This document shows, in pieces, positions 3,328-30,138 of a stretch of 54,519 bases of DNA. Within the stretch, counting starts at the first letter, position 1. The number at the start of each line of letters is the position of its first letter. This DNA comes from Solirubrobacterales bacterium. GTDB taxonomy: Bacteria > Actinomycetota > Thermoleophilia > Solirubrobacterales > 70-9. Location: contig JBBQZL010000001.1 of assembly GCA_038207745.1 (NCBI GenBank), positions 1-54,519 of the forward strand. The letters run 5' to 3'. The position numbers were made by a program, and so were the translations under genes. The notes beneath the pieces were generated by a model. The model worked only from the letters and a program-made list of their open reading frames with translations. It searched no databases and was not told the origin of the DNA.

Positions 3328-3621
3328 CAACGTCCTCCTTGGGAATCGGGGCGCCGCGGCAGGGGTTGTCCGCGATCGCATCGATCCTCTTCGGGGTCAC
3401 CGGCCCGATACCTACCCGGAGCAGGCACCCGCCGCTGCATGAATCCGAAGACCCTCAGCCGCATGCGGCGACGGAGGCGAAGCGCTTCCGGGTCTCGTTC
3501 AACCGGACGCCAGGAGATACGAGATCAACCTGATCCGATCCTGAACGCCCTACAAACCTGCGCCGGCCCGCCTCGTGGAAATCAACTCCTTCCTGCTGTC
3601 GGTGCGGTAGCGTCTGACGCC

Positions 3622-4497
3622 ATGCGATCGACTCTCGAGGGCAAGGGTGTTCTGATCACCGGAGCGGCGTCGGGAATTGGGTTGAACACTGCCCGGGGAC
3701 TGGTCGCCAGGGGTGCCCGCGTCGCGGTTGTCGATCTGGATGCGCAGGCCGCGGAGAGCGCGGCCGCGGAGCTCGGCGGAGATTGCTTTGGCCTCGGCGC
3801 GGACATCACTGACCGGGAGGCAATCGCTTCCGCGGTCGACTCCGCCGCCGGCCGATTGGGCGGGCTCGATGTGGTCGTGGCCAATGCCGGCGTCGGCTGG
3901 ATCGGCACCGCGCTCGAGATCGACCCGGACGTCTGGGAGCGAAATGTCGAGATCAACGTGCTCGGAACATGGCGGACGATCAAGCCATCGTTGCCTCACC
4001 TTGTTGAGAGCCGCGGATACCTTCTGGTCACCTCCTCCGTTGCCGCGCTTGCTGCCGTGCCGGCACTCTCGGCCTACGCGCTGAGTCGTTCCGCGACCGA
4101 GTCGCTCGGCGGGACGCTGCGCGTAGAGCTTGCCCACCACGGTGTTGATGTCGGCGTCGCCTATTACTCCTGGATCAAGACTCCCCTGGTCAGTGGTGGA
4201 GACGACGTGCCCGCCTTCGGCCGATTCCGGTCTTCGCTGCGCTGGCCGCTCTCCAGGACCTACAAGGTCGAGGACGCCGCCGCCGCAACCGTCAAGGGAA
4301 TCGAAAGGCGATCCAGAAGAGTGATGTACCCGGGCTGGATTTGCCCGATGTTCGCGATGCGGGGGATGCTCGGTCCGATGGCCGAGCGCGACGGGCTCAG
4401 GGCGATGCCCGAGATCGAGCAACTCGACCGCGAGGAGATTGAGCGGGTCGGCCCGAAGCTGGCGCCCCTGCCACCCGCGCAGCGGCCGGGCGGCTGA
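3622..4497 (+). CDS. SDR family oxidoreductase
   Basis: KGVLITGAASGIGLNTA Rossmann motif, NAGVG. The long upstream extension of the ORF (2764-3621) is Arg-rich and non-protein-like. Confidence 0.85.
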   Translation: MRSTLEGKGVLITGAASGIGLNTARGLVARGARVAVVDLDAQAAESAAAELGGDCFGLGADITDREAIASAVDSAAGRLGGLDVVVANAGVGWIGTALEIDPDVWERNVEINVLGTWRTIKPSLPHLVESRGYLLVTSSVAALAAVPALSAYALSRSATESLGGTLRVELAHHGVDVGVAYYSWIKTPLVSGGDDVPAFGRFRSSLRWPLSRTYKVEDAAAATVKGIERRSRRVMYPGWICPMFAMRGMLGPMAERDGLRAMPEIEQLDREEIERVGPKLAPLPPAQRPGG

Positions 4498-4504
4498 GCG
4501 GCAG

Positions 4505-5374
4505 TTAGCGAAGCGCCTCGAGCAGCTCGTCGATCGTCGGTATCTCGCCTGCTCCTGGCAATCCGACTGACGCAAGCAGCTCGGCGCGGACCTGATCAGC
4601 AGAGTCTCCGCCGGCGAGTCGCTCTCCGAGCGTCACCGCCCCGTGGCGCTTCGCGAGCCGCTCTCCGTCGGGACCCAGCATCAGCGGGACGTGGGCAAAC
4701 GAGGTTGGCGCCCTGACCTCGAGCGTCCGCGCCAGCCAGAGCTGGCGGCCCGTCGAACCGAGCAGGTCGTCCCCGCGGACGACCTCTTCGATCCCCTGTT
4801 CGGCGTCGTCGACCACCGTGGCGAGGTTGTAGGCGTGGACACCGTCATTGCGGCGGACCACGAAGTCATCGACCACCCCGGTCACGGTGCCATGGATCCG
4901 GTCCTCGAACCCAACCGTCGCGGCTTCGGCCCGAACTCTCAGCGCAGGAGGACGGCCAGATGCAACCAGCTCCCGGCGGCGCTCCACGGACAGGTCGCGG
5001 CAGGTTCCCGGATAGGCGCCCTCGGGCAGATCGACATGGGGCGCCGAGACGGCGCTTCGGATCTCGGCCCGGGTGCAATAGCACTCGTAGACCGAGTCGC
5101 CCGCGATCAACGGCCCCAGGGCCTCGCCGTAGATATGCGCACGACGGCTCTGGAAGATCGGATCCTCGTCCCAATCGACGCCGATCGCCCGGAGATCTCC
5201 GAGCTGCCGCTCCACCCAATCTGGACGCGAGCGCTCGGGGTCCAGGTCATCGACGCGAAGCAGGAAGCGGCTTCGCTGCGCGCGCGCAAAGAACTGCGCC
5301 AGGAGGGCGGTACGAAGGTTGCCGAGGTGGAGCTCGCCGGTCGGGCTCGGTGCGTATCTGCCGTCGGCACTCAT
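4505..5374 (-). CDS. gluQ: tRNA glutamyl-Q(34) synthetase (truncated GluRS paralog)
   Basis: [18 protein letters not shown] (HIGH-type motif). About 290 aa with no anticodon-binding domain. The ATG overlaps the upstream stop (ATGA). Confidence 0.8.
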
Positions 5375-12843: not shown

Positions 12844-13983
12844 TCATCGCGTCCCCTCCGCCTTTTCCCAGGCACCGGGTGGACCCTGCCGCCAGCGGTC
12901 CCAGAGCCCGAAAACGATCGAGGCCGTGACGATCACGTAGTAGCGCGCGATCCGGAGTGGCCCGAAGGGAACCAACGGCGCGAGGAAGGCCGCCGCGAGG
13001 AGCAGGACTTGGAGCCCCAGGGTGACCCGGTAGACCGTACCCGCCGACTGAGCGACCAGGACGATGTTGAGCCCAAGCGTGATCAGATGCAGGAACGGGG
13101 TCAGGTAGCGCAGCAGGCGGTGGGAGAAGATCTCGAAGGCAAACATCGGCGAGTAGCCGCGCGGCGAGATCATCCGCTCGCCGATCACGATGTCCCAGAG
13201 CCCGATCATCATCCGGCGCTTTCGTGACCACTCTCCGGAGAGTGTCGGAACCATCAGCTCGGAGGCGCGGGCAACGGGAACGTATACCGAGCGAAGACCC
13301 TGCCTGGCCATCTCGAAGGGAAACGAGAGGTCGTGGCTGCCGGAGGGTGGCAGCGCGACGTAGGCGCTGCGGCGGACCGCGTAGATCGCCCCGTTGCCCG
13401 CGGTCACCCCGCCCAACCCGGACTCGAGCTCGCGCACCTTCATCTCGTAGCGCCAGTAGATCCCTTCCTGATTGTCGCCGTCCTCGTTGATGAAGCTGAC
13501 CTGCCCGCAGGCGTAGCCGATGCTCTCGTCGGCGAAGGGCGCGACGAGCCCGCGCAGGGCGCCCGGCTCCCAGAAACTATTTGCGTCGGAGAATGCGACG
13601 AGATCGCCCCTGGCACTCTCGACGGCGGAATTCTGGCCGGTGATCTTGCCGCCGCGGGGCAGGTCGAGGACGAGGTCGGCGCCTGCTGCCCTGGCCACGT
13701 TGACAGTCCTGTCGGCGGAGCCGTCGGAAGCCACGATGATCTGCAGCAGCTCACGGGGGTAATCGAGCGCGAGAGTGTTCGTGACCTTGTCCGCGATCAC
13801 ATCCTCTTCGTCGTATGCGGCGATTACCAGCGAGACGCTGGGCAGCGAAACGGCGTCCCCGCCGGCCCGGACCGCCCTGCGGCCAGAAAGCAGCAATCGC
13901 AGGATCGCCAGCGCAATCGTGTAGCCGACGTGGGTATAGACGATCAGGGCCACGCAGACCCAGAAGAGGGTCTCAAGCACCAT
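12844..13983 (-). CDS. membrane-embedded family 2 glycosyltransferase (synthase-like)
   Basis: VSLVIAAYDEEDVI, ASDGSADRT, and N- and C-terminal TM helices. Confidence 0.8.
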   Translation of the reverse strand: MVLETLFWVCVALIVYTHVGYTIALAILRLLLSGRRAVRAGGDAVSLPSVSLVIAAYDEEDVIADKVTNTLALDYPRELLQIIVASDGSADRTVNVARAAGADLVLDLPRGGKITGQNSAVESARGDLVAFSDANSFWEPGALRGLVAPFADESIGYACGQVSFINEDGDNQEGIYWRYEMKVRELESGLGGVTAGNGAIYAVRRSAYVALPPSGSHDLSFPFEMARQGLRSVYVPVARASELMVPTLSGEWSRKRRMMIGLWDIVIGERMISPRGYSPMFAFEIFSHRLLRYLTPFLHLITLGLNIVLVAQSAGTVYRVTLGLQVLLLAAAFLAPLVPFGPLRIARYYVIVTASIVFGLWDRWRQGPPGAWEKAEGTR

Positions 13984-15106
13984 CGTGGTCACCTGAGGAC
14001 CCGAGCAGGGATGAGTAGAGATCTTTGGTCTGGAGGCCGATCTCGTCCCAGGAGTAGGTGGTGGCCGCGGCCTCGAACCCGGCCTCGGAGAGTTGGCGCC
14101 GGGCATCGGGGTCCGCGATCAGGCGGTTGAGCTCGGTGGCGAGCGCTTCGGCGTCACCCGGCTCGACAATCCGGATCGCCCCGCTCGACCCCGCCAGCTC
14201 GGGAAAGCCTCCCACCGAGCTGGCGACCATCGGAGTTCCGAAGGCAAGGCCGGTGTAGATGACGCCCGAGTGCTCGGCGTCGAGATACGGAAGCACCGCG
14301 ATGTCGGCACGGCGAAAGAGTGCCGGGATCTCGTCCTCATCAATGAACCGGGTCACGAACCGGACCTTTGCCGAACAGAGCTCTGCCGCCTCGAGCAGCG
14401 GCTCGACCGGCATTCGTGGATTGCCGACAATCCAGAGTTCGGCACCCCTGACCTGCCGGAAGGCCTCGAGCAGCAGATCGACCCCCTTGTAGGGACGAAG
14501 CAGGCCGAAGAAGAGCACGACCGGTCCCTCGGCGCCCGCCAACTCATCTGGAAGCGGCTTCTCCTCGGGGAGCGCGGTCAGGTAGTCGAAGGCGCCGTGA
14601 TGGATCACATGAATGCGGCCAGGTTCAACGCCCACCTCCTCGCGAAGGCGACGGGCACCGTGCTGAGAGTGAGCGATCACCGCGTCCATCTGCCCATACA
14701 TCCGGCGGGCGATCCCAAGTTGCCGGCGGGATGGATCCGGCGCGAGTATGTAGTGCGCGGTGATCACGCTCGGGCGACGACGCGAGATCAGGTGGGTGTC
14801 GATCGCGGGCATCGTCAGCCACTGGTGGTGGACGACGTCGGGTTCCGGCCTGCGCCAGAGCGCCGCCATGTCGAGCAGGTGCTCGCCCGCCTTGAAGATC
14901 CGGCGCCCCGGCGCGTCGAGGCCGCGGGCCGCGGTGCGGCGATAGAAGGCCTCGGTGACCTCGTAGCCGTCGGTCTCGGGCACCGGTCCGTAGAGAAAGC
15001 GCGACGTGATCAACTCAACCTCAACGCCTGCGCGCGCCAGCGACCTCGCGAGGGCGTGGTCATAGGGAGGCGTGAACGCCGAGGGGTCCAGCATCGAGAC
15101 GCGCAT
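13973..15106 (-). CDS. family 4 (GT-B) glycosyltransferase
   Basis: The C-terminal EHSGVIYTGLAFGTPMVASSVGGFPE motif is typical of Glycos_transf_1. Start at ATG 15106 (MRVSMLD). Confidence 0.8.
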   Translation of the reverse strand: MRVSMLDPSAFTPPYDHALARSLARAGVEVELITSRFLYGPVPETDGYEVTEAFYRRTAARGLDAPGRRIFKAGEHLLDMAALWRRPEPDVVHHQWLTMPAIDTHLISRRRPSVITAHYILAPDPSRRQLGIARRMYGQMDAVIAHSQHGARRLREEVGVEPGRIHVIHHGAFDYLTALPEEKPLPDELAGAEGPVVLFFGLLRPYKGVDLLLEAFRQVRGAELWIVGNPRMPVEPLLEAAELCSAKVRFVTRFIDEDEIPALFRRADIAVLPYLDAEHSGVIYTGLAFGTPMVASSVGGFPELAGSSGAIRIVEPGDAEALATELNRLIADPDARRQLSEAGFEAAATTYSWDEIGLQTKDLYSSLLGSSGDHDGA

Positions 15107-15132
15107 TCGGAAGCGATTATCGTGCCGGGAGC

Positions 15133-16074
15133 GTGGAACCGACACTCTCCTACTGCATCGTGAACAGCAATGGCCGCAAGTATCTGCTCGCCTGCCTTGC
15201 CGCGATCGCGCGCAATCACCCCCACGGGGTCGACTGCGAGATCCTTGTTCTGGACAACGCATCGAGCGATGGATCAGCCGATGCCGCGCGGGCCTGGAGC
15301 GACGAGAATGCCACAGCGGTGACCGTGATCGCGCTCGACCAAGCGGAGGGCAAGGCGGCCAACGACTCGCGCCTGATTCGGGACGCCAAGGGCCGCTACT
15401 GCCTGCTCCTCAACGAGGATTCCGAGGTTATGGACGGAACTGTGGCGGCATTGATTGCGGCCCTTGAAGCGGAACCGAAGGCGGCAGCCGCCGGAGCACA
15501 ACTGCTCGACGGCGACCTCGTCCCGTATCCCTGTGCCTGGCGTTTCCCCGGGCTGGCGACCGCATGTGCCGGGGCGCTCTTTCTGCACCGCAGATACACG
15601 GTCCAGAGCGGCGGCGGCGGCGGCGGCGAAACCCGTATCGTCGATTGGGCGCAATCCAGCGCGCTTATGGTTCGCCGAGAGGCCGCCGCCCAGGTCGATT
15701 TCCTCGACCCAGAGTTTTTCGTCTACTACGACGAGTGCGACTTCTGCAAGCGCCTCGCCGACGCCGGCTGGCACACCCTCTACGTCCCCGGCGCAAATGC
15801 AATCCACCACAACCAGCTCTCGACCGACCTGGGCAAAGGCCTGCCACGGATCGTCGAGTTCCACCGCAACCGCGACCTCTACATGCGAAAGCACCACGGC
15901 CCGGCAGAAGCCGCAGTGGTCAGACTGCTGACCGCCTGGACCTACGGCCTCCGCGCCATCGCCGCCCTCGTCGTCCCCGGCCACTCGCCGAAGGTCCACC
16001 TGGTCCACGCTCGTCAGGCGCTTTTCCCCGGTCGCGGCAGGGGGATTCGCGACAAGGTCGAAGCCGGCCGCTGA
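15133..16074 (+). CDS. family 2 glycosyltransferase
   Basis: SYCIVNSNGRKYL, LVLDNASSDGS, NEDSEV. The GTG start is only 26 nt from the divergent GT4 start. Confidence 0.8.
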   Translation: MEPTLSYCIVNSNGRKYLLACLAAIARNHPHGVDCEILVLDNASSDGSADAARAWSDENATAVTVIALDQAEGKAANDSRLIRDAKGRYCLLLNEDSEVMDGTVAALIAALEAEPKAAAAGAQLLDGDLVPYPCAWRFPGLATACAGALFLHRRYTVQSGGGGGGETRIVDWAQSSALMVRREAAAQVDFLDPEFFVYYDECDFCKRLADAGWHTLYVPGANAIHHNQLSTDLGKGLPRIVEFHRNRDLYMRKHHGPAEAAVVRLLTAWTYGLRAIAALVVPGHSPKVHLVHARQALFPGRGRGIRDKVEAGR

Positions 16075-16142
16075 AGCCCGGGGAGATACCTCCGGTCCGC
16101 GAAACCGAAGGTCACTGGTTCGAATCCTGTCGGGCGCGCTCT
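16074..16142 (+). repeat. tRNA-3'-half-like element, copy A (degenerate, no D arm)
   Basis: T arm ACTGG-TTCGAAT-CCTGT, then CGGGCGC-G. A 4-bp stem CGGT/ACCG with loop CCGCGAA. The 5' strand AAGCCCG pairs 5 of 7. Bases 16101-16142 match 25426-25467 at 36 of 42 positions. Confidence 0.6.
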
Positions 16143-16245
16143 GGAAACCCACTCCAAAACCGCTCTGGCAAGCGCAAACGGAGAAGGTCAAGGCTCCGCT
16201 GCCGAAGTCTCCGAAATCCCCAGATCGGGGGGCCGCGCCTAGGAA

Positions 16246-16269
16246 GACTATCGCGCAGTTATCGCGCGG
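16246..16269 (+). repeat. ATCGCGC tandem motif (arm-type repeat), copy A
   Basis: gactATCGCGCagttATCGCGCgg, closely similar to 19941-19966. Confidence 0.5.
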
Positions 16270-16380
16270 ATCCAAGCCGAGAACCTCGGCGACGCTGACA
16301 AGGGCTCAGCCATCTTCTCTTCCCTCCTCTTGCCCGGGGCCTGTGTTGCATCTCCGCCACAAGGTGATTGACCTCATACC

Positions 16381-16415
16381 TTGACAATACCCCCCCAGGG
16401 TATTACTGTCAAGTC
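16381..16415 (+). promoter_or_regulatory. candidate promoter TTGACA-17 nt-TACTGT giving a leaderless transcript; overlaps an imperfect inverted repeat
   Basis: The -10 ends 6 nt before ATG 16416. TTGACAATACCC ... GGGTATTACTGTCAA is an imperfect palindrome. Confidence 0.5.
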
Positions 16416-17111
16416 ATGACCCGGAACCCGATCGCGGCGTTGGCCCCCACGGCGGGTACCCCTAAGACCGGCGAAGCGGAGACGGTGATGCGAGCCGAAG
16501 GAGTGAAGAAGGGCTTCCACCGCGGTCTACCGCCGCGGCGGCGCAGGACCGAGGTCCTTAAAGGGGCAAGCCTCGAGGTTCGCCGCGGCGAGTTGGTCGG
16601 CCTGGTCGGCGAGAATGGCTCGGGAAAGAGCACCCTGATGAAGATCGTCGTTGGCATGATGGAGGGTGACGGGGGAGAGATTGAGCGAAACGGAAAGCTC
16701 GGCTACTGTCCGCAGACGCCGCTGCTCTGGGAGAAACTGACAGTGGCCGAGCACTTCGAGCTGTTCGCCCGCGCGTACGACCTCGACCAGACCGAAGCGG
16801 ACTCGACCAGCCAGAGCCTGCTCGCCGAACTTCAGTTCGAACGCTACCGCGGCTACCGGATCGAGGACCTCTCCGGCGGGACCCGGCAGAAGCTGAACCT
16901 GGCACTGGCCCTGATGCACGGGCCTGACCTTCTGCTGCTCGACGAGCCCTACTCCGGCTTCGACTGGGAGACATACCTGCGCTTCTGGGAGATGAGCGAG
17001 AGGCGCCGCGACCAGGGGATGGGCATCCTGATCGTCTCCCACTTCCTCTCCGAGCGCGAGCGCCTCGACCGCGTCTACGAGCTGCGTGACGGGAGGTGCA
17101 TCGAGGCGTGA
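16416..17111 (+). CDS. ABC transporter ATP-binding protein (ABC-2 exporter type)
   Basis: GENGSGKST, LSGGTRQKLNLA, LLLLDEPYSGFD. ATG 16488 (MRAEGVKKGF) is an alternative start. Confidence 0.85.
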   Translation: MTRNPIAALAPTAGTPKTGEAETVMRAEGVKKGFHRGLPPRRRRTEVLKGASLEVRRGELVGLVGENGSGKSTLMKIVVGMMEGDGGEIERNGKLGYCPQTPLLWEKLTVAEHFELFARAYDLDQTEADSTSQSLLAELQFERYRGYRIEDLSGGTRQKLNLALALMHGPDLLLLDEPYSGFDWETYLRFWEMSERRRDQGMGILIVSHFLSERERLDRVYELRDGRCIEA

Positions 17112-17824
17112 GCGGAATTGTGATTTCCAGCGCCGACTTCCTGCGCGAGCACCTGCGGGCACGGCTGACGCTGGTCATGTTGGTGGCGCTCCCGGCTCTT
17201 TTCGTGCTCGTCTCGGCCTCGGTGCTCGGAGAGTTCGCCTCGGCTCTCGGCGGCTCGGTCGCCGGCGATTCTGCCTCGGCACTGGGCGCCGGTTGGGCTG
17301 CGGCCTTTATGGCGGGTGCTCTCGGCTTCTTTCAGGTCGCCTCGGCTCGCGGGGCGGATCGCCGCCTGGCGCTGGCGGGAATGGGAGCGGTGCCGGTAGC
17401 GGTTGCGCGGATATCGGCCTCGATTCTTCTTGGGCTGCTGATATCAGGAGTCGCCTTCGGCACCCTCTGGCTAGCTGCCGGCATCGCTCATCCCGCCCAC
17501 GCATTCATCGCGATCCTGATCTTCGCTCTGATCTACATCGGTATCGGCACCGTGGTCGGATCGTTCATCTCCGACCCGCTGGAGGGCTCGCTCACCGTGG
17601 CGTTCATCTTCCTGATCGACGCCTTCTCCGGCCCGGGGATGAGCGGTGGCGGAGGGCTGGCGCAGCTGATGCCGACCCGCAAGGCGGCCGACGTACTGGT
17701 CGCCGCCGGGGCGGGCCAGAGCTCGCCGGCCGGGGACTGGATCGCGGTGTGTCTGACGGCCCTCGGGGCCCTACTGATTGCGACGGGGGCCTTCTGGCTC
17801 TCCGCCCGGCCGAGGTCGGCATGA
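17108..17824 (+). CDS. ABC-2 type transporter permease
   Basis: About 6 predicted TM helices. GTGA overlap with the ATPase stop. Confidence 0.7.
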   Translation: MSGIVISSADFLREHLRARLTLVMLVALPALFVLVSASVLGEFASALGGSVAGDSASALGAGWAAAFMAGALGFFQVASARGADRRLALAGMGAVPVAVARISASILLGLLISGVAFGTLWLAAGIAHPAHAFIAILIFALIYIGIGTVVGSFISDPLEGSLTVAFIFLIDAFSGPGMSGGGGLAQLMPTRKAADVLVAAGAGQSSPAGDWIAVCLTALGALLIATGAFWLSARPRSA

Positions 17825-18567
17825 GCGGGCGCGCTTCCACGGCGATCCGGATGGGCTTCCGCGAGCAGCTCCGCCGCCCCCTGCTGCTGGTCCTACTGAT
17901 AACCGTCCCGTTCCTCTTCATCAGCTGGAGCGTGGCGATCACCGAGCCCAACCCGCACCTGATCACCCTGCCCGGTGGCGATCAATTCCTGACCACGATG
18001 AAGGATCTGCACGGCGCGATCATGGTGCCGATCACCGTTGGCTTCCTCGCCGGCCTGGTCGGCCTCTTCATCGTCCAGTCGGCCCTGGAATCCGACCGCC
18101 GCCTGGTGCTGGCCGGATACAGTCCCGGTGAGGCGATCATGCCGCGCCTCGTCGTCCTTTTCACGGCGACACTCGTCGTCATCGCCGTTTCCCTCGGGGT
18201 AACTGCGATCGACTTCACCCCCGCTTCCTGGCTCCCCTTCGTTACCGGCAACCTCCTGGCCGGCCTGATCTACGGCGCGATCGGCGCCCTGGCGGGAGCG
18301 CTCGTCGGCCGCCTCGGAGGCGCCTATCTGATGTTCTTCCTGCCGATGCTGGACATCGGGGTTGCCCAGAATCCGATGTTCTTCCGAGGCACCCCGCAGG
18401 GGTGGGCCACCGTGCTCCCAGGCTACGGTCCGACCCGGGTCCTGGTCGACGGCGCGTTCTCGTCGAGCTTTGACGCCGGGGGCTCGCTGATCGTGGCGTT
18501 GCTCTGGCTTGCCGCCCTCTCAGTGGCCGTGCTCGTTCTGCTTCGCCGCTCCGTTGCCGGCTCCTAA
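17821..18567 (+). CDS. ABC-2 type transporter permease (second subunit)
   Basis: ATGA overlap with the previous stop. Polytopic, with a large first loop (PNPHLITLPGGDQFLTTMKDLHG). Confidence 0.7.
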   Translation: MSGRASTAIRMGFREQLRRPLLLVLLITVPFLFISWSVAITEPNPHLITLPGGDQFLTTMKDLHGAIMVPITVGFLAGLVGLFIVQSALESDRRLVLAGYSPGEAIMPRLVVLFTATLVVIAVSLGVTAIDFTPASWLPFVTGNLLAGLIYGAIGALAGALVGRLGGAYLMFFLPMLDIGVAQNPMFFRGTPQGWATVLPGYGPTRVLVDGAFSSSFDAGGSLIVALLWLAALSVAVLVLLRRSVAGS

Positions 18568-18675
18568 GGACGAGCGCTTCCAGCAGGGTGGGTGCTGCAC
18601 GATCGGCGAACTGATACGCCCTGAATTGAACCGAGCCGCCGCCAACTACCACGCCCTCGTGCTCTGCTCACCGCG

Positions 18676-19134
18676 CTACTTGCCGCTCTGCGACGAACCG
18701 CCCGTGGGGACATCAGGCGAGGGGCCACCTCCGTGCAGGTGGGCAATCAGGTCGGCCATCTGGTTCGCCTCGAAGGTCGGGAATGGGATGCCTTCCTCCG
18801 CGAAAGCGGCCTCCATCGCGGGGACGTGGTTCCAGATCCTGCCGCTCATGTTGGCGATGTCGGTGACGCTCTGCTTGCTCCTCATGAAGTCGAGCTTAGG
18901 AGCGTCGGTGCCACCCTGGCCCTCGAAGGTATGACACATCGAGCAGCCCTGGCTGACGAACAGCATCCGTCCCTGCGTCGCGTTTCCGATGCTGCTGGCT
19001 TGAAGCGACCCGCTCGAAGAGTTGCTCTCACTTCCCTTGACGAGGACACCGAACACCACCCCGACGCCCAATCCGAGAGCGGCGGCGACCAATATGAGAA
19101 GAAGGGCATTCGAGGACCCACGTTGATTCAACAT
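18676..19134 (-). CDS. membrane-anchored monoheme c-type cytochrome
   Basis: N-terminal TM ALLLILVAAALGLGVGVVFGVLV and heme motif CSMCH. A distal Met for the axial ligand is plausible (IWNHVPAM). Confidence 0.75.
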   Translation of the reverse strand: MLNQRGSSNALLLILVAAALGLGVGVVFGVLVKGSESNSSSGSLQASSIGNATQGRMLFVSQGCSMCHTFEGQGGTDAPKLDFMRSKQSVTDIANMSGRIWNHVPAMEAAFAEEGIPFPTFEANQMADLIAHLHGGGPSPDVPTGGSSQSGK

Positions 19135-19202
19135 CCGCTCAACGAATCGCGCCAGGTGACAGATCGCAACTTGGGTCGGTCCGACGCGCCGGTCCTCCGG
19201 AA

Positions 19203-19508
19203 TTACAGCGGTGGGTGGTCTCGTAGCGTCTGGCAAGTGCCAGCTTCTCCTCGGTCCAGCGGATCGGTCGGCCGCTCTCTGCGCGGGTCTCGGGCCCGCG
19301 CCGATGCCCTCAGCCTCACCCGCCGCAGGAGGTCGAGGCACTCCAGCTTCTTGGCGGCGCGCAGGTAGCCCTTCTGGACGCTTGACGTTCCTTCCGGAGC
19401 ATCGATCACCAACCCGCCATGGGTTCCCGGCGGGGGAGCGTAGACCAGCAGGGTGCGCTCGAGGACGCCGAGGCGGACGCCCTTGAAGGTCGAGGTCCGC
19501 CCACTCAT
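19203..19508 (-). CDS. hypothetical small protein (orphan)
   Basis: GAGG lies before ATG 19508. The first ~65 codons have strongly G/C third positions. No family recognised. Confidence 0.5.
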   Translation of the reverse strand: MSGRTSTFKGVRLGVLERTLLVYAPPPGTHGGLVIDAPEGTSSVQKGYLRAAKKLECLDLLRRVRLRASARARDPRRERPTDPLDRGEAGTCQTLRDHPPL

Positions 19509-19634
19509 CGCCTCTGCGCGATTCTGGCCGCCATCCGCCTTGCGATCTCGTCCAGGTCCGCTGTCGGCATATCGTCTGATGCGGTCCCGGCCCCGTCTCG
19601 AGCTGACCGGGGATCAGTGCATGCAGCCTCGGCG

Positions 19635-19883
19635 TCAAGTTGTGCTCTCTTCCGCGCCGTCTGGTCTACGTCTGATGTCGCGAGCTCCCGGATGGTCTTG
19701 CCCTGGCGGCCCAGGGGAGGGGGTCAGGATCACCCTCCCGTTGGCTGCTGCCTCAGCCAGCTTTCGAAGCAGATCGGGGCGGGATACCCCGCGATGGAGC
19801 GCCATACGGTCGATCTGTGCGGCGAGCTCGGAAGGCAGCTTGGTCGAGACGGTCTGAACCTTCTTGGTTTCTGAAGAGGCCAC
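19635..19883 (-). CDS. ribbon-helix-helix (CopG/Arc/MetJ-like) DNA-binding protein
   Basis: KVQTVSTKLPSELAAQIDRMALHRGVSRPDLLRKLAEAAA fits a beta-strand/helix/helix pattern. Third-position GC is visibly lower than in neighbouring genes. Confidence 0.6.
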   Translation of the reverse strand: MASSETKKVQTVSTKLPSELAAQIDRMALHRGVSRPDLLRKLAEAAANGRVILTPSPGPPGQDHPGARDIRRRPDGAEESTT

Positions 19884-19940
19884 ACAACAGGTATTCCGAC
19901 GATTTCGCGGTGCTCCCCAAACGGACTCTTGAGGCCCGTG

Positions 19941-19966
19941 GGACCATCGCGCAGGTCTATCGCGCG
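19941..19966 (+). repeat. ATCGCGC tandem motif (arm-type repeat), copy B
   Basis: gaccATCGCGCaggtctATCGCGCgg; compare 16246-16269. Confidence 0.5.
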
Positions 19967-20030
19967 GCGCTGCCGACGCCCAATGAATGGCTCAAAAGTG
20001 CCAGTCACCGGGAACCAGCGGATGGTCTAA

Positions 20031-20061
20031 GAAACCGAAGTCACTGGTTCGTCTCGCGAAC
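20031..20061 (+). repeat. partial tRNA-3'-half-like element, copy B, ending in a GGTTCG-tctc-CGAACC hairpin
   Basis: 20031-20051 equals 16101-16122 except for one missing G. The hairpin could also terminate the SDR operon on the minus strand. Confidence 0.55.
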
Positions 20062-20074
20062 CGGGTGATCGGGT

Positions 20075-20902
20075 TCAGCCCGGTCGTCGTGCCTTCAGTG
20101 CACGGTCGACCATGCGGTCGCCGGCCGCGTTCATCAGGCCCGGGAGGATGTTGGCGAGGCGACGGGTGAACCGTGCGCGGTGGCCGGGGATGATCATCCG
20201 GCGGCGGCCTTCCAGCCCGCGGATGATCTCTTCGCAGGCTTGGTCGACACCGAGGGTGCCCGAGAACTTCTTCAGCTCGAGGCTGATCGCGTCGCCGGTC
20301 CGGCGTTCGTCCTCGACCATCGCGGTCTCGACCTCCGGCGGACAGATCACCGAGACGGCGATGCCCTTCGGCTTGTACTCCAGCCTCAACGCCCCCGCCA
20401 GCCCCACAACCCCGAACTTGGAGGCGCTATAGGCCGCATAGCCGTAGTTCGGGACGATCCCGGCAAGGGAGGCGATCAGGGCGAGCTGCGCTCCCGGTTG
20501 CATTTGGGGGAGAACCGCTGCGGCGAAGTTGCGACTGCCGATCAGGTTGACCTCGACGACGAGCCGGAACCGCTCCTCGCTGAGCTCCTCAAACGTCTTC
20601 GATGCCTGGACCCCGGCCGAATTGATCGCAAGAGTCGGCGGCCCGGTCGCCGCAACCGCCTTCTCGACGGCCCGAGCCAGCGCGTCGGCGTCGGTGACGT
20701 CGACCTCGTGGAAGCCGGCGCCCGCTCCACTGTCCGCGTCGCCCCCGTCGCCTCCGAGCCTGCGCCTGGCTTCGTCACCGATCTTCAGATCGAAGACGGA
20801 AACCGCCACTCCTCGCGCCCGCAGCATCTCGGCCAGGCGCAGGCCGATGCCGCTCCCTCCGCCGCTGATCAAAGCCGTCTTCCAGTCCGTTCGCACGCTC
20901 AT
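20075..20902 (-). CDS. SDR family oxidoreductase
   Basis: ALISGGGSGIGL; YAAYSASK catalytic motif. Confidence 0.85.
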   Translation of the reverse strand: MSVRTDWKTALISGGGSGIGLRLAEMLRARGVAVSVFDLKIGDEARRRLGGDGGDADSGAGAGFHEVDVTDADALARAVEKAVAATGPPTLAINSAGVQASKTFEELSEERFRLVVEVNLIGSRNFAAAVLPQMQPGAQLALIASLAGIVPNYGYAAYSASKFGVVGLAGALRLEYKPKGIAVSVICPPEVETAMVEDERRTGDAISLELKKFSGTLGVDQACEEIIRGLEGRRRMIIPGHRARFTRRLANILPGLMNAAGDRMVDRALKARRPG

Positions 20903-20927
20903 CGTTTTCCTCTCGTTGTCCGCTTCG

Positions 20928-21890
20928 CTAATCCAGCAGGCCCTGTCCGGCCAGCCACTGTTCGCTTCGCCGCATGCCTTCCTCCAGATCGACCTTGGGC
21001 TCGTATCCGAGCAGCCGTCGTGCCTTGTCGATCGAGTAGCCGCCGGTACGGGCCAACATCCTCATCGACTCGGCACTCACCTCGGTCTCCCGCCCCAGGG
21101 CGCCGAAGGTCATCCCGACCACACCGGCCAACCCCTTCGCCAGGGGGGTCGGCAGGGTCCGGATCGACTTGCCGCCGAGCATGCGGGCGTAGTGCCCGAA
21201 GAAGTCCCTCGCCGGCAGCCCGGCGCCGTCGCCGAGGATGAATACCTGTCCCGCCGCAACTTCAAGGCCGCCGACTGCCTCGAGCCCGTCGATCAGGTTG
21301 TCGATGTAGACCGGGCTGAAGACGCCCATGCCTCGGGCCGGCAGCGCGAACTGGCCCGAGCGAAGCATCTCGACCGGGATCCGCGTCCAAGGTCGGGAGC
21401 GCGGGCCATAGACATCGGTGGGACGGACGACGGAACAGGCGACCTCGCCCGCCGCGTGGGCCTGCAGGACGAAATGCTCGGAGGCGACCTTGGTGTCCAC
21501 GTAGTGGTTGCCGTTGGGCCGCAGCGGGTAGGTCTCGTCGACTCCATCGGGGAAGTCGAACCCGTATGCCGCAACCGAGGAGAGATGCACGAAGCGACCG
21601 ACACCGGCGTTCGCAGCGGCCTCGAGCGCCCGCCGCGTACCCAGCACATTCACGTTCCAGGAATTCTCCTCGGAGGCGACGTTCGAGACCACGGCCGCGG
21701 TGTGGAAGACGAGGTCGCATCCAATAAGCCTTCGCGCCCAGCCGCTCGGGTCGAGGATGTCGCCGGCGACGACGCCGAGCTCCGGCTCGGCAACCCGATC
21801 GAGCCCGCCCACCTCGGCCCCGGCAGAGCGGTAGCGCTCCAGCAGGGCCCGGCCGATGAAGCCGAGAGCGCCGGTGACGAAGATCTTCAT
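20928..21890 (-). CDS. NAD-dependent epimerase/dehydratase family protein
   Basis: MKIFVTGALGFIGRAL, extended-SDR layout. Start at ATG 21890; the longer ORF extension is Arg-rich and non-protein-like. Confidence 0.8.
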   Translation of the reverse strand: MKIFVTGALGFIGRALLERYRSAGAEVGGLDRVAEPELGVVAGDILDPSGWARRLIGCDLVFHTAAVVSNVASEENSWNVNVLGTRRALEAAANAGVGRFVHLSSVAAYGFDFPDGVDETYPLRPNGNHYVDTKVASEHFVLQAHAAGEVACSVVRPTDVYGPRSRPWTRIPVEMLRSGQFALPARGMGVFSPVYIDNLIDGLEAVGGLEVAAGQVFILGDGAGLPARDFFGHYARMLGGKSIRTLPTPLAKGLAGVVGMTFGALGRETEVSAESMRMLARTGGYSIDKARRLLGYEPKVDLEEGMRRSEQWLAGQGLLD

Positions 21891-22846
21891 TTCCTTCTCC
21901 TGATCGTGGTCGGAGTGAAGCCGGTCAGTCGCCACGCCCAGCGGCGCGGGTAGAGCAGCTCGACGTTCTCGCCCGAGGGAAGTTCGAAGTACATGACGCG
22001 GAAGATCCCGGCCTCGAGCGGCTTCTCGCTGGTCGGCCGGAATCCGCGATCGACCCAGCGGTCGTAGGTGCGGTCGAAGGTGGCGCGGTCGCGGGCGACG
22101 ATGGCGATGTTCATGATCCCCTGGTCGCAGATCCGATAGCCATCGGGCAACGGCCTGCCGAGCGGACGCTGGTATTCGACCAGCTCGAGCAGCACCCCGC
22201 CGCCGTCGAGCGTGTGCTCGCGCCGCTCTGCTCCATCCAGTCCCCACATGGCCTCGTGCTGAGGGGAGTGGAGGGGGAGATCTGCGGTATCGAATCCGAT
22301 GCCGTCGGCCCAGGTGTGGACGGCAGCGTCGAGGTCGGTGACCGAGATCGTGATCGAGCGCAGGGTCGCCGGGACCTCCGGTCGCTGCTTGGCGGGCTCG
22401 GAGGCGGCCAGGGGATCCGCCTCCATCAACTCGATCCAGTTGCCCTCGGGGTCGCGCGCGCATGCGCGGCGTTGCGGCCGGACCCCGAGTACCGGGCCCA
22501 CCGGCTCAGAACCGAGGCGCGCCATCCGGCCGAGGGTTGCATCGAAGTCGCGGACGTGGAAGCCGGCGCGACGGTAGCCGTGATCGGCCGGGGTCTCATC
22601 GGGTCGGCGAGTGCGTGGGCGGGGGTGGATGAAGTGAAAGAGTTCGATCTGGGTCCACTCGCGTCCGTCGATCAGCCAGCGGGCGGTGAAGAGTGGAGTG
22701 GTGAGACCGTTGACCTTCGCCGCCGGTGGCCCGGCGAACAGTGACGCGCCGCTCGGAAGCAGCCCGAGACCGTCCCGGTACCACTCACGCATCTGCGAGC
22801 CCCCGAGGTGGTTGAAGGCGAGTTGGCCGATCGCGAGGTCACGCAT
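21887..22846 (-). CDS. two-domain VOC (glyoxalase/bleomycin-resistance/dioxygenase) family protein
   Basis: Two repeats of the VOC pattern (FHVRDFDATLGRM..., ITISVTDLDAAVHTW...). ATGA overlap with the downstream epimerase gene. ATG 22891 is an alternative start. Confidence 0.65.
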   Translation of the reverse strand: MRDLAIGQLAFNHLGGSQMREWYRDGLGLLPSGASLFAGPPAAKVNGLTTPLFTARWLIDGREWTQIELFHFIHPRPRTRRPDETPADHGYRRAGFHVRDFDATLGRMARLGSEPVGPVLGVRPQRRACARDPEGNWIELMEADPLAASEPAKQRPEVPATLRSITISVTDLDAAVHTWADGIGFDTADLPLHSPQHEAMWGLDGAERREHTLDGGGVLLELVEYQRPLGRPLPDGYRICDQGIMNIAIVARDRATFDRTYDRWVDRGFRPTSEKPLEAGIFRVMYFELPSGENVELLYPRRWAWRLTGFTPTTIRRRK

Positions 22847-22978
22847 ACGCGGATCTCCCTGCCCCGCTGGTCCACCCATACTTGACGCCATCGGTCTGGT
22901 TCAGCCCGCGAGCCTGGGCCGGGTCCGCCTCTTGTACGGAGTGGTAGCTCATCCGACCTCGCCTTCGCTGGATCAAAT

Positions 22979-25397: not shown

Positions 25398-25425
25398 GCG
25401 GCGGCCGAGGCCGCGGCAAGGCCAC

Positions 25426-25467
25426 GAGACCGGTGGTCACGGGTTCGAGTCCTGTCGGGCTCGCTCT
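25426..25467 (+). repeat. tRNA-3'-half-like element, copy C
   Basis: T arm ACGGG-TTCGAGT-CCTGT, then CGGGCTC-G. 36 of 42 positions are identical to copy A. No complementary 5' acceptor strand upstream. Confidence 0.6.
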
Positions 25468-25804
25468 CAAGGCCCCCGACAGACCGCGTGGGAATGCGGC
25501 GTTTGCCGGTACCAAATTGAGCCTTCAAAAAGTGGCAAACTCGTCAAACCGCTTGGACATGCGGTCTCAAGCTGTCGCGCGACTATCGCGGGCAAGTGAG
25601 ATGGCCAAATGGGATCGCAGCGATTCGGGAAAGCGAAACCATCGCGCAGGCAGGCACGCTCCGGCTGGCGACGAGGCCGAAATGAGCTGGTCGGTGATCA
25701 GCCTCGACGATGGCCTGAGCAGATAATCCTGGCTCTATCAGGCACCTGCCGGTCCGGGTGCCCACTTGACGAGTGGGTTCGAGACGATCTCGGCTGATCC
25801 AACG

Positions 25805-27064: not shown

Positions 27065-28639
27065 CTAGTTCACCGAGTCCTCGTCGCGGGACTCTGCCTC
27101 GTAGAACTCGGGGATGCCGCGCCCATCCCCTGGACGCTCCCCCTCCTCTCCCGTGGGCACCGCAAACGAGGCGGATGCCATCGTCCCGGCCCGCGAGACG
27201 AACTCCCTTGGGTGTCCGAGAATCGAGAGCCCCTTCAGCTCGGTTTCGGTGAAGAAGCCCGTGACGAGGAGCAGCAGCGGATAGGCCGCGAGCAGCACCA
27301 GCCGCCCTGCGAAACCCGCGATCCCCTCCCCGGGCAGCAGCGCCTCGCCGAGGCCGACCACCAGCGCCGAGAAGCCGACGATCCTGATCAGCCTTCCCCA
27401 CTCGTATGGGACCGGGAAGAGCCGCTGGGTGAAGAAGTACATGAGGATCAAGACCACGACGTAGGAGATGACCAGCGCGAGTCCGGCGCCGACGATTCCC
27501 ATCGAGGGGACCAGGATGATGTTGAGGACGATGTTGACCACCGTTGCCGCGATCGTCGCCGGGAAGTTGAACTCGGTGCGGCCGGTGCGGCCGAGGATCA
27601 CGACCAGGACCATGTAGAGCGCGTAGAGCGTCACGCCGGTCGAGAGCAGTCCGATCGCCTCGTAGGAGTCGAAGAACTGTGGCGCGGCGAAGATCCTCAC
27701 GATCCAGCGCGAAAACAGCCACATCCCGGTTACCACGAGGGTGCAGATGCCGAGAAACCATGTGACCACGAGCGCGTATGTATTCCTTGCCTCGTCGTCG
27801 TCCCTGATCGAGTAGGCGAGCGGCGGCCAGGCGAGCTGGAAACCACGGACCAGGACGTTGACCCCCTGCGAGAACTTGACCGCCAGCGAGTAGAGACCCG
27901 CCTCGGCGAGGCCGATGTAGCGGACGATGATGATCCGGTCGATGAAGTTGAGCGAGTAGAGGGTCAGCTCCGCGGGCATGGTCGGAAAGCCGAAGCGCAT
28001 CAGGCGTCGAAGCAGCCCCCACTCTGGCCATAGCGAGAGCCGCCGCCAGTTGGCGATGACCAGCCCGGCCACGAAGAGCGCGCCCGACGCGTAGCTGCCG
28101 AGTAGGAGCCCGCGCGCGCCCTCGTCCATGAAGACAACCAGGACGATGGTCAGCGGGATCGTCAGGGCGACGTTTGCGATCGTGACGATGAAGTAGGGCC
28201 TCGCCCGCTCGTCGAGCCGGTAGAGGGTGAGCAGGTACTCGAACAGGGTCAGGACCCAGAGGCCTCCGATCGCGATCCTGACCAGACCGGGAGCCGACTG
28301 GTCGAGGAGCGCGTTCGAGATCGGCTCCGCAAATGGCAGCAACGCCGATGCCGTCAGCGTTGCTCCCCAGAACAAGGTCGCAAAGGAGGTGGAGACGACC
28401 TTCTTCGGATCCTCTCCGCCCGTGTAGTAGAAGCGCAGCAGCGCCTCGATCATCCCGAGTCGCACGACAATGGAGGCCGCGACCACTGCAGCGAAGAGAA
28501 CCTCGGCTGCGCCGTAGTCAGCGGGGCTGAGGTGGCGCGTGTAGAGAGGCAGCAGCGCAACCGCGATCAACTTGGAGAGGATGCTGGCCGCCGTGTAGGC
28601 GGCTCCGGTTGTCGCCAGGCGGCGCAGGGATCCCGACAC
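27065..28639 (-). CDS. Wzx-like oligosaccharide/polysaccharide flippase (MOP superfamily)
   Basis: About 12-14 TM helices. The N-terminus AYTAASILSKLIAVALLPLYTRHLSPADYG is typical of the family. Confidence 0.75.
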   Translation of the reverse strand: MSGSLRRLATTGAAYTAASILSKLIAVALLPLYTRHLSPADYGAAEVLFAAVVAASIVVRLGMIEALLRFYYTGGEDPKKVVSTSFATLFWGATLTASALLPFAEPISNALLDQSAPGLVRIAIGGLWVLTLFEYLLTLYRLDERARPYFIVTIANVALTIPLTIVLVVFMDEGARGLLLGSYASGALFVAGLVIANWRRLSLWPEWGLLRRLMRFGFPTMPAELTLYSLNFIDRIIIVRYIGLAEAGLYSLAVKFSQGVNVLVRGFQLAWPPLAYSIRDDDEARNTYALVVTWFLGICTLVVTGMWLFSRWIVRIFAAPQFFDSYEAIGLLSTGVTLYALYMVLVVILGRTGRTEFNFPATIAATVVNIVLNIILVPSMGIVGAGLALVISYVVVLILMYFFTQRLFPVPYEWGRLIRIVGFSALVVGLGEALLPGEGIAGFAGRLVLLAAYPLLLLVTGFFTETELKGLSILGHPREFVSRAGTMASASFAVPTGEEGERPGDGRGIPEFYEAESRDEDSVN

Positions 28640-28653
28640 GCTTGTCCCCGAGC

Positions 28654-30138
28654 CTAACCCTCGCGGGCGGGGAGAGCGGGCAGGGAGCAGGCGAGCGCGA
28701 GCAGGATCCAGGTCACCGGGTCTTCAAAGAAGTTGGCGTAACCGAGCGTGTGGACGAGCATGGTGACAAAGAGCGCGAGGACGCAGGCGCGCGCAACCAC
28801 GAATGTGTTGTCGCGGCTTTCCGGTCCGCCGCCCCCGATCCCCGGCATCACGCCGCGCATTCCCCGGCACATCACGACCAGGGCCGTGATGATCAGGGCG
28901 AGATAGACGAGCAGACCGATCAGCCCCTGCTCGGCAGCAACCGTGACCGGCTCGGTGTGCGACTCGGAAACCGGTGCCCTGCCGTTCTTCGCAACGTCCT
29001 TGAGGTAGGCGATCGCAAACGAACCGGAGCCATAACCTTGCAACGGCCGATTGCCGAATAGCTGACCCCCTCCCTCGACCAGATTGGTCCGGCCGCTGGA
29101 TCCGGTCGAGTCGAAGAGACCGACGCTGAAGGCCGCGACCACCGCGACCAGGGTGCCGGCGCCACAGATCGCTGCGGTCCAGCGGATGCTCCAGCGCATC
29201 GCTGCGAGTACGGCAAGGCCAACCAGCAGGGCGGCGAAGCTCGAGAGTGAGTAGGTCGTGACCAGGCCGAGCCAGAGGATTGCCGTGATCACGGTCAACG
29301 CGGCGGCGACCTTGCGATCCCGTGCCCACAGCAGCACCCCGACGACGCCGATCAACACATACGAGAGGTAGCGGCCGTAGATGTTCGGGTCCCAGAACAG
29401 GGAGTTGACGCGGAAGTAGATGTGGAATTGATTGGCCTCGATCACCTCCGGATTCCAGATCAGGTGCCTGGTCGCCAGCTCGCCGAAGCCGAAAAGGGCG
29501 AAGACCACTGCCTCGACCACGAAGACGCCGAAGAACAGCGTCAGCAAGCGGCGGTCCCACTCGCACTCGCGAAGAAGGACGAACATGATCGTGAACGGGA
29601 CCAGGAAGAAGCAGAGGTCCTGAAGCGCCCTCGAGAGATCATCCGAATAGAGGCCCTGGAGCGCGTAGAGACCGACGAATGCAACCAGCAGCCGCGGCAG
29701 CCAGGCTGACCAGCGGGTCTGTAGACGCGGCCGGGATGGATCCGTGCGAAGCACCGTGACCACGACGCCCGCGACGATCACGACATAGAGGGGAAGCAGG
29801 AGATTCGCCTGATCGCCTCCGGACTCGAGCGGAACCCGGAGCGGCAGCGCCGCGGCGATCCCCAGGGGAAGGGCAAGCGGATACCGCCGGATCAGCGCAA
29901 CAAGACTTGCAACGATGAGCGCGCCCAGCGCCAGGCCGACGGCGATCCTTGCGGGGCTGTCCCGGAGATCCGCCACGCGAGGCGTGTCCCACTGATCCCC
30001 GAAGACCAGGACCGGCAGCAGGACAAGTGCCAGCAGCATCGCGGCCGATCGTTCTCTCGAGGGGGGCAGAAGGATCGCCGCGCACGCGGCACCGGCAACC
30101 AGGACCGTGCCGAGGCCCGAGAGCAGCGATGTGATCAC
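28654..30138 (-). CDS. O-antigen ligase/polymerase (Wzy_C) family membrane protein
   Basis: Polytopic, with a periplasmic loop region (NSLFWDPNIYGRYL). Sits in a polysaccharide locus. Confidence 0.65.
   Translation of the reverse strand: MITSLLSGLGTVLVAGAACAAILLPPSRERSAAMLLALVLLPVLVFGDQWDTPRVADLRDSPARIAVGLALGALIVASLVALIRRYPLALPLGIAAALPLRVPLESGGDQANLLLPLYVVIVAGVVVTVLRTDPSRPRLQTRWSAWLPRLLVAFVGLYALQGLYSDDLSRALQDLCFFLVPFTIMFVLLRECEWDRRLLTLFFGVFVVEAVVFALFGFGELATRHLIWNPEVIEANQFHIYFRVNSLFWDPNIYGRYLSYVLIGVVGVLLWARDRKVAAALTVITAILWLGLVTTYSLSSFAALLVGLAVLAAMRWSIRWTAAICGAGTLVAVVAAFSVGLFDSTGSSGRTNLVEGGGQLFGNRPLQGYGSGSFAIAYLKDVAKNGRAPVSESHTEPVTVAAEQGLIGLLVYLALIITALVVMCRGMRGVMPGIGGGGPESRDNTFVVARACVLALFVTMLVHTLGYANFFEDPVTWILLALACSLPALPAREG

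Follow-up and report, generated by a model that had tools for sequence, protein, structure and literature searches.

Introduction

In lambda-type attachment sites (attP) the core lies between two arms, P and P', which carry repeated sites for the N-terminal domain of the integrase together with sites for accessory proteins. Cis-mobilisable elements (CIMEs) and decayed remnants of integrative and conjugative elements or integrative and mobilisable elements form tandem arrays at tRNA genes and other attachment (att) sites, as described in Streptococcus thermophilus. Islands and prophages that are integrated in tRNA genes, as collected in Islander, have a regenerated tRNA gene at one junction, while the opposite junction carries a displaced 3' fragment (PMC4383910). 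In this study we analysed a stretch of 54.5 kb of one genome, an uncultured Solirubrobacterales bacterium (contig JBBQZL010000001.1, positions 1 to 54,519), here called the window; copy counts and absences given for the window refer to that stretch. A segment at approx. 16.09-20.05 kb is bracketed by two pairs of recurring sequence blocks, and with a probability of roughly 0.8 we consider it the decayed remnant of a site-specific element that was integrated by a tyrosine integrase and targeted tRNA-Arg(ACG).

The segment resembles Islander-type islands in that direct repeats of the 3' part of a tRNA bracket it, that the identity runs from the anticodon stem/loop towards the 3' end of the tRNA, and that its relatives hold an integrase of the PF00589 family near one end. 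It differs in that the window contains neither a regenerated tRNA gene nor an integrase, that both ends are fragments, one of them cut in the T-loop, and that its composition is indistinguishable from that of the flanks. With the lambda attP it shares a core flanked at -85/-72 and +125/+138 by 11-bp direct repeats, the reconstructed attP being approx. 260 bp long, and a gene for a small DNA-binding protein beside the P arm. Here, however, this neighbour is a ribbon-helix-helix (RHH) protein of the CopG/VapB-like type and not a winged-helix Xis, the arm sites are putative, and in the relatives the integrase gene is parted from attP by the RHH gene and an open reading frame (ORF) of approx. 270 codons (ORF270). 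As in CIMEs, an integrase-less segment lies between att-derived repeats, and att fragments of the same orientation are found at 16.1, 20.0 and 25.4 kb. Unlike in CIMEs, the att sites of the window are non-identical and one is truncated, so that mobilisation in trans is doubtful, and no helper was seen.

Results

Two sequence blocks recur in permuted order at the ends of the segment

The original prediction, made from the letters of the sequence, had described a core block and an arm block at both ends of the segment and had read them as attL and attR. The core, the 22-mer GAAACCGAAGGTCACTGGTTCG at 16101-16122 on the plus strand, was indeed found again at 20031-20051 on the plus strand with one G missing. 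Each of the two was unique in the window, and when up to three mismatches were allowed the core had zero matches in any of the dinucleotide-preserving shuffles used as chance control. The full shared core block comprised 29 nt (16094-16122 versus 20024-20051) with three substitutions and one indel. In local alignments of the left and right intergenic regions the core scored 37, whereas none of 500 shuffles exceeded 28. The arm block scored 33 (16246-16269 versus 19942-19967; shuffle maximum 28, n=500), and its recurrence at both ends was thereby verified as well.

The unit of the arm was the 11-mer ACYATCGCGCR, mostly present in two tandem copies. In the left arm, which we assign as the putative P' arm (16246-16269, plus strand), the units ACTATCGCGCA and GTTATCGCGCG lay 127 and 138 nt past the core end. 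In the right arm, the putative P arm (19942-19967, plus strand), the units ACCATCGCGCA and GTCTATCGCGCG preceded the core by 85 and 72 nt, and the arm was 63 nt upstream of where the RHH gene starts. Paired heptamers of the form ATCGCGC-N(2-10)-ATCGCGC occurred in the 54.5 kb only at these two arm sites, with an expected number of 0.11. All four blocks were on the plus strand, and the core preceded the arm at the left end and followed it at the right end, so the permuted order with inward-facing arms that had been predicted was also observed.

The core is derived from tRNA-Arg(ACG)

An exact-pattern scan of metagenome contigs recovered at least 120 stretches with at least 128 occurrences of the core (L089-L208). 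Together with the two of the window, 130 cores were analysed, and the counts that follow hold among the matches listed. About half of the 130 cores were located inside intact tRNA-Arg(ACG) genes as detected by ARAGORN (at least 60 genes). There the 22-mer corresponds to positions 37-58; it begins at the last base of the anticodon and ends in the T-loop, and the gene around it reads GCGCCCGTAGCTCAGCCGGATAGAGCGTCGGTCTAC, GAAACCGAAGGTCACTGGTTCG and AATCCAGTCGGGCGCG in succession. Approximately 64 of the 130 were displaced 3'-half fragments, in which the identity to the tRNA extended from about GGTCTAC to the acceptor end and the upstream sequence was unrelated, as is typical of the fragments that islands leave behind when they integrate into tRNA genes. 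Several contigs held a tRNA gene and a downstream fragment, or two fragments.

To judge by these metagenome matches, integration at tRNA-Arg(ACG) seems to be very frequent in soil Actinomycetota, which would make this gene a hotspot. Some fragments on the contigs with a core formed a second family, recognised by a common pseudo-5'-half upstream sequence that begins AAACCGAGCCCCACRTAGCCCAGCCGAG.

With nhmmer models built from 121 tRNA-Arg halves only three tRNA-Arg-like sites were found in the window, all on the plus strand: 16096-16138, 20022-20055 and 25421-25462. The left site (E=4e-15) belongs to a 3'-half fragment, att-1 (16094-16138, plus strand), that reaches from the anticodon stem to the acceptor 3' end and is complete through the T-arm and the acceptor 3' strand, with one mismatch in the T stem. 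The right site (E=2e-6) belongs to a truncated fragment, att-2 (20024-20051, plus strand), which breaks off in the T-loop so that the 3' end of the tRNA is missing. By alignment to tRNA-Arg genes and by its fold, att-2 spans GGTCTAa in the anticodon stem/loop to GGTTCG in the T-loop and lacks one G. As anticodon loop, att-1 has CCGCGAA, att-2 CTAAGAA and the tRNA CTACGAA. The core had been predicted to be the T-arm and acceptor 3' half of a tRNA. Its tRNA origin held, but the repeated part is the stretch from the anticodon loop to the T-loop, and only the left copy extends to the T-arm and the acceptor. By analogy with other tRNA-targeting integrases, the crossover likely fell in the anticodon loop as the overlap region.

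At att-2 the tRNA-like sequence ends exactly in the T-loop, and a second rearrangement may have taken place there. The site makes up the 5' arm of an imperfect hairpin (20031-20076) with a perfect GGTTCG/CGAACC stem and no T run, located directly after the stop codon of an SDR gene on the minus strand.

ARAGORN detected no tRNA in the window, and the Rfam tRNA model scored 20.2 bits at the left site, below its gathering score of 29 bits. The Rfam alignment hinted at a dead full-length tRNA gene at the left end. This candidate was rejected, as its 5' half scored at the shuffle median. With a 5' half no more similar to a tRNA than expected by chance, either the element must have integrated at a fragment that was already there, or the segment is one unit of a tandem array.

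The distance between arm and core is kept in independent contigs

Among the matches listed, forward ATCGCGC heptamers gave 23 hits at +120 to +160 from the core end, in 16 contigs, and seven hits at -100 to -60 from the core; any other 20-nt bin within 400 nt of the core held two or fewer. Arms of the P' type were thus found +124 to +148 after a tRNA-Arg core in 16 independent contigs, and the sequence from the tRNA to the arm varied among them although the distance was kept. The P arm lay 85/72 nt before the core in the window, 84/72 in contig L209, 84/71 in L212, 84 in L213 and 85/73 in L124, a spacing kept to 1 nt despite unrelated intervening sequence. P'-type arms were located 3' of intact tRNA-Arg genes in five of the contigs listed and 3' of fragments at ten sites, that of the window included. 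As 41 of the 46 listed tRNA-Arg genes with enough flank had no P'-type arm, the arm is not a general chromosomal feature. No conserved genes were found beside the P' arms across the contigs, which suggests that the cargo side is variable.

In L124 a P arm (-85/-73), a 3'-half core and a P' arm (+125) are contiguous, and both arms are near-identical to those of the window. The P' side shares CGCCTAGGAAGACyATCGCGCAG (24 nt, one Y position differs) and the P side CATCGCGCAG..ATCGCGCGGC. To judge by its sequence, the arrangement in L124 is the attP-like product that recombination between the two cores of the window would be expected to give. By analogy with lambda, the arms most likely serve as arm-type sites to which the integrase or an accessory protein would bind.

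Lone ATCGCGC heptamers are frequent in the GC-rich window (34, both strands), as would be expected if the blocks were a generic dispersed repeat of the REP type or a chance match. The original prediction had named a scattered REP-type repeat as the finding that would speak against an integrated element. We rejected this candidate and regard the chance of such an origin as negligible, because both blocks exceeded all shuffles, the only three copies of the core in the window are tRNA-Arg-derived, and the arms are tied to cores across contigs.

An RHH gene and a truncated orphan gene link the segment to integrase-bearing relatives

The original prediction had listed an ABC-2 exporter, a cytochrome c, an orphan gene and an RHH gene within the segment, and Pfam searches bore out this gene content. 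The RHH gene (CopG/VapB-like; 19505-19883, minus strand; PF01402, E=9.6e-6) is frameshifted near 19700-19720. Its N-terminal ORF covers 19635-19883 and its C-terminal part 19505-19717 in another frame, which translates cleanly and ends in a TGA that overlaps the ATG of the orphan gene (ATGA). The reconstructed protein of 129 amino acids (aa) aligned with its family from end to end at 39-49% identity. A full HMMER scan of 1.84 billion representative proteins found only 15 relatives, of which 13 were retrieved (81-130 aa). An index of 5.8 billion proteins gave no match to the RHH protein, and the gene was not called in the source contig.

A lower third-position GC of the RHH gene had been noted in the original prediction and was confirmed (0.65 versus 0.78-0.86 in the neighbouring genes). 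It had also been suggested that this gene sits where xis genes or genes for recombination directionality factors (RDFs) usually lie. In profile and structure searches the protein matched no known Xis or RDF family. The matches were of the VapB/CopG type only, namely PF01402, CopG-like repressor families in PHROGs and, as the closest solved structure, VapB26 (5x3t, E=7e-4). A functional RDF role of the RHH protein is possible.

The orphan gene (19203-19508, minus strand) is conserved only at residues approx. 11-84. It is 54% identical to residues 14-83 of ORF271 of L209 (E=5e-19) and then ends, and it is 59% identical to ORF274 of L213. We concluded that the orphan is a truncated pseudogene of an element protein of approx. 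270 aa, because the match to that protein stops after approx. 84 residues. No family was found for the orphan in Pfam, NCBIfam or PHROGs, and the protein search gave one relative. A recognisable toxin partner of the RHH protein, as in a type II toxin-antitoxin pair, was not found; ORF271 and ORF274 match no family in Pfam, NCBIfam or PHROGs.

The contigs that code for three of the RHH relatives, P0121 (L209, L210, L211), P0125 (L212) and P0124 (L213), share the layout of the right end of the segment. In L209-L213 a tRNA-Arg 3' half is followed by the P arm and, after 62-129 nt (63 in the window), by the start of the RHH gene. Homologues of the orphan come after the RHH gene in L209, L210, L212 and L213, and in L209, L210 and L213 this is a gene of 271-274 aa (ORF271/274) that overlaps the stop codon of the RHH gene. 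Beyond it, on the opposite strand, are a gene of 60-65 aa and a tyrosine integrase gene, found in L209 (PF00589, E=1.6e-19) and L213 (402 aa) within 3.3 kb.

The integrase of L213 is 27-29% identical over more than 85% of the length to the Int of corynephage 304L and to the integrases of the Arthrobacter phages Kukla and TripleJ, its closest annotated matches, and its catalytic domain matched Tn1549 Int as the closest solved structure (6en0, E=7e-10). It is thus like the corynephage and actinophage integrases, but the identity is low and its companion genes have no relatives there. Neither ORF274 nor its companions (the RHH family and the 60-aa gene) had relatives in the phage, plasmid and IMG/VR collections searched, the core had no match in IMG/VR, and no phage structural genes were seen in the contigs of the element family.

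Integrases 29-38% identical to the L213 enzyme adjoin several other cores (L099, L155, L159, L184, L205). Just past the integrase gene of L213 lies a gene for a large YD/RHS-repeat protein (3265-4971), and the cargo of the family is therefore apparently on the integrase-distal (P') side and variable.

No recombinase was detected in the segment, as had been predicted. Pfam gave none among the cassette genes, and tblastn with the integrases of the family gave E>1 anywhere in the window. Taken together, the tRNA-derived core, the locked spacing of the arms, the attP-like contig L124 and the integrase-bearing relatives with the same end uphold the attL/attR reading of the two ends.

The segment holds a putative copper-regulated operon without its regulator

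Between the two ends lies a module of 2.75 kb (16381-19134). Its operon starts from a predicted promoter (TTGACA-17-TACTGT) with a CsoR/RicR-type box at 16381-16415 on the plus strand, from which the ATG at 16416 would be leaderless. The promoter is followed, on the same strand, by genes for an ABC transporter ATP-binding protein (16416-17111; PF00005, E=3.5e-28; 74-81% aa identity to relatives) and for two ABC-2 permeases (17096-17824, weak PF12698, 78-83% aa identity to relatives; 17821-18567, weak PF12698, 336 homologues). The relatives of the second permease number hundreds at 60-84% identity, many of them at 80-84% and mostly from Solirubrobacterales. On the minus strand a membrane-anchored monohaem cytochrome c (CSMCH) is encoded at 18676-19134 (PF00034, E=9e-6).

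The box, TACCC-N5-GGGTA, is located at 16388-16402 in the promoter spacer, reads TACCCCCCCAGGGTA and is unique in the window. It matches the palindrome of RicR promoters, TACCCCGCTGGGTA (PMC3944814), and in this respect the operon is like the CsoR/RicR regulons of Actinobacteria. A second likeness is found in the relatives, where the ABC operon lies near csoR (PF02583) and a copper P-type ATPase gene, directly divergent from csoR in L085 and L087. In L082-L084 csoR is located approx. 1.2 kb upstream of the ABC operon with a SURNod19 gene between them. Five of the relatives, L082-L085 and L087, have the box in front of their ABC operon, and in L082-L085 it also precedes the csoR-copA operon. 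The window differs in that csoR and copA, and likewise IS481, are absent from it, and copper regulation is suggested by the motif. The hairpin at the palindromic promoter had z=-4.0. The promoter scan also found a mirror-image promoter on the minus strand (TTGACA-17-TATTGT), probably the relic of a divergent csoR promoter. An ABC-2 exporter with a cytochrome c is, to our knowledge, not a characterised CsoR target.

The window at 16381-18990 was 78-81% identical in DNA to the csoR-linked modules of L082-L088, in which the cytochrome c gene usually follows the ABC operon on the opposite strand (L082-L086; a remnant in L087 and L088). The homology begins at 16381, exactly at the palindromic promoter. 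L082-L088 lack the adjoining 300 bp to the left and 940 bp to the right, where the two cores, the two arms, the orphan and the RHH gene are located. From sequence comparison, the ABC/cytochrome c genes appear to be a copper-stress module parted from its regulator and set between the ends of the element remnant.

The positions of the arms, 63 nt upstream of the RHH start and approx. 150 nt upstream of the ABC start, would also suit operators of the RHH repressor for its own gene and for the ABC operon, with the core as incidental tRNA debris and the geometry as coincidence. RHH proteins typically bind tandem short repeats, and PHROGs labels this one a CopG-like repressor. We nevertheless consider this reading very improbable. 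The ABC operon has a conserved CsoR-type operator of its own, and in 16 of the contigs listed a P'-type arm lies at +125 from a tRNA-Arg core, with unrelated genes downstream. Moreover, the distance from arm to core is kept to 1 nt while that from arm to RHH gene ranges over 62-129 nt. An operator common to the ABC operons of the relatives was rejected, as no ATCGCGC pairs occur there. It is possible that the RHH protein binds the arms as an accessory factor, which would be compatible with this evidence.

A homologous ABC-2 operon is encoded at 1-2256 of L199 (69% nt identity to 16825-18482 of the window). An intact tRNA-Arg(ACG) gene of the same orientation follows 370 nt past the end of this operon.

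This arrangement, the chromosomal position of the module beside csoR in L082-L087 and the repeated activity at the locus that a third att-like site in the window indicates would fit a history of two events. The ABC/cytochrome c module would then have been chromosomal, upstream of a tRNA-Arg gene, and the element would have integrated downstream of it; a deletion would have removed the tRNA gene, the P' arm and most of the element, and the left fragment with its P' arm would stem from an unrelated integration. We hold such a history to be unlikely. It needs more steps and the loss of a tRNA-Arg(ACG) gene, it gives no reason for a fragment and a P' arm to abut the CsoR-box promoter exactly where csoR would be expected, and the two arms of the window are closer to each other and to those of L124 than to most others.

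The remnant is probably decayed

The original prediction had left a choice between a decayed island and a small satellite mobilised in trans. The frameshifted RHH gene, the truncated orphan, the right core without a tRNA 3' end and the differing cores favour the decayed island, and the satellite became the less favoured part. Judged by analogy with known systems, the remnant would be immobile even with an integrase supplied in trans, since it has no integrase, its right core lacks the tRNA 3' end and its cores differ at three anticodon-loop positions and by one indel.

An integrase-less cassette that is still mobilisable, of the CIME or satellite kind, would move the copper module with an integrase provided in trans by an intact member of the family. 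In its favour, the two arms show little decay and have the right spacing, integrase-bearing intact relatives are found in the environment, and L124 shows an attP-like contiguous arm-core-arm. We see only a slim chance of this, given that the cores differ as stated, that the right core is without sequence 3' of the T-loop, and that the crossover regions of the two att sites, at the position deduced here, are not identical (CCGCGAA versus CTAAGAA). In addition, the element's own genes are pseudogenes and no helper element is present in the 54.5-kb window. In its strongest form the same idea would have a living cassette that intact family members excise and re-integrate and that shuttles a CsoR-controlled module among Solirubrobacterales, with RHH and ORF270 as a new directionality or regulatory module; we rate this as similarly improbable.

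Neighbouring genes and a third att-like site

The VOC-epimerase-SDR operon to the right of the segment (20075-22891) was the sole part of the neighbourhood kept in the nearest GTDB Solirubrobacterales genomes (L002-L006). The SDR protein was 67-75% identical in aa to those of the nearest genomes, and synteny broke at both ends of the operon, with nothing in common past the SDR stop codon. Searches for identical copies of the SDR and GT2 proteins gave no match outside the source sample.

The third tRNA-Arg-like 3'-half fragment, at 25421-25462 on the plus strand (nhmmer E=8e-6), is more diverged and reads CCACGAGACCGGTGGTCACGGGTTCGAGTCCTGTCGGGCTC. It lies directly after the stop codon of a TPP-enzyme gene. 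P'-type arms follow at 25570-25594 and 25637-25650, CTGTCGCGCGACTATCGCGG approx. 128 nt past GGTTCG and, in addition, ACCATCGCGCAGG. This suggests that the 25.4 kb site is another att junction of the same element family and that the locus has a history of tandem or serial integration.

Genes for polysaccharide synthesis flank the att-bracketed region on both sides, with GT2, GT4 and GT2 glycosyltransferases on the left (12844-16074) and a Wzx-type flippase and a Wzy/O-antigen ligase on the right (27065-30138). One polysaccharide locus may thus have been split by att-bounded segments (16.1-25.5 kb).

Discussion

In this study we compared the ends of a 3.9-kb segment with tRNA genes and metagenome contigs, and the decayed tRNA-Arg(ACG) element is the reading that we favour. 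In the history that we propose, elements of this family would insert into the portion of tRNA-Arg(ACG) from the anticodon loop to the 3' end. A tyrosine integrase would have recombined the attP (P arm, core and P' arm, approx. 260 bp) with a target derived from tRNA-Arg(ACG). The absence of the 5' half makes it probable that this target was a fragment already in place or belonged to a tandem array. The two cores would be the tRNA-derived identity segments at the junctions of the element, and the arm blocks its P' and P arms, each with two 11-bp direct repeats about one helical turn apart.

An intact member would carry the P arm followed by an RHH gene whose translation is coupled to that of a gene of approx. 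270 aa; the 60-aa gene and the integrase gene would come next, on the opposite strand. In the window ORF270 would later have lost its distal two-thirds, and the 60-aa gene, the integrase gene and anything between these and the copper module would have disappeared. The frameshift in the RHH gene and the loss of the tRNA 3' end from the right core would have followed. That the copper module was cargo of the element, retained after an internal deletion, is in our opinion an even bet.

Several observations weigh against the decayed element. A regenerated intact tRNA gene was not found at the left junction, neither with ARAGORN nor with Rfam nor in the comparison of the 5' half with shuffles. GC, GC skew and third-position GC gave no compositional island signal for the cassette except at the RHH gene; the other cassette genes have a third-position GC of 0.78-0.86, the same as the flanks. 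The closest genomes share the SDR operon only. The copper module may have been a neighbour of the target instead of cargo, as it is chromosomal beside csoR in relatives and a homologous operon lies near the tRNA-Arg gene in L199. Finally, a single insertion does not account for the local history, as the third fragment with its P'-type arms shows.

A decayed island linked to a tRNA is in itself an ordinary, textbook phenomenon, a common genomic scar that involves no new mechanism. What is new is an apparently uncharacterised family of tRNA-Arg(ACG) elements, with a core, ACYATCGCGCR arms, a fixed spacing and a module of RHH, ORF270, 60-aa and integrase genes. For the uncultured Solirubrobacterales, the remnant explains how a copper-responsive exporter operon comes to stand without a regulator amid unrelated genes. 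The family, now defined, is widespread in soil actinobacteria and can help to annotate islands and tRNA fragments when genomes are assembled from metagenomes, and it is a candidate integration system for the poorly tractable Actinomycetota.

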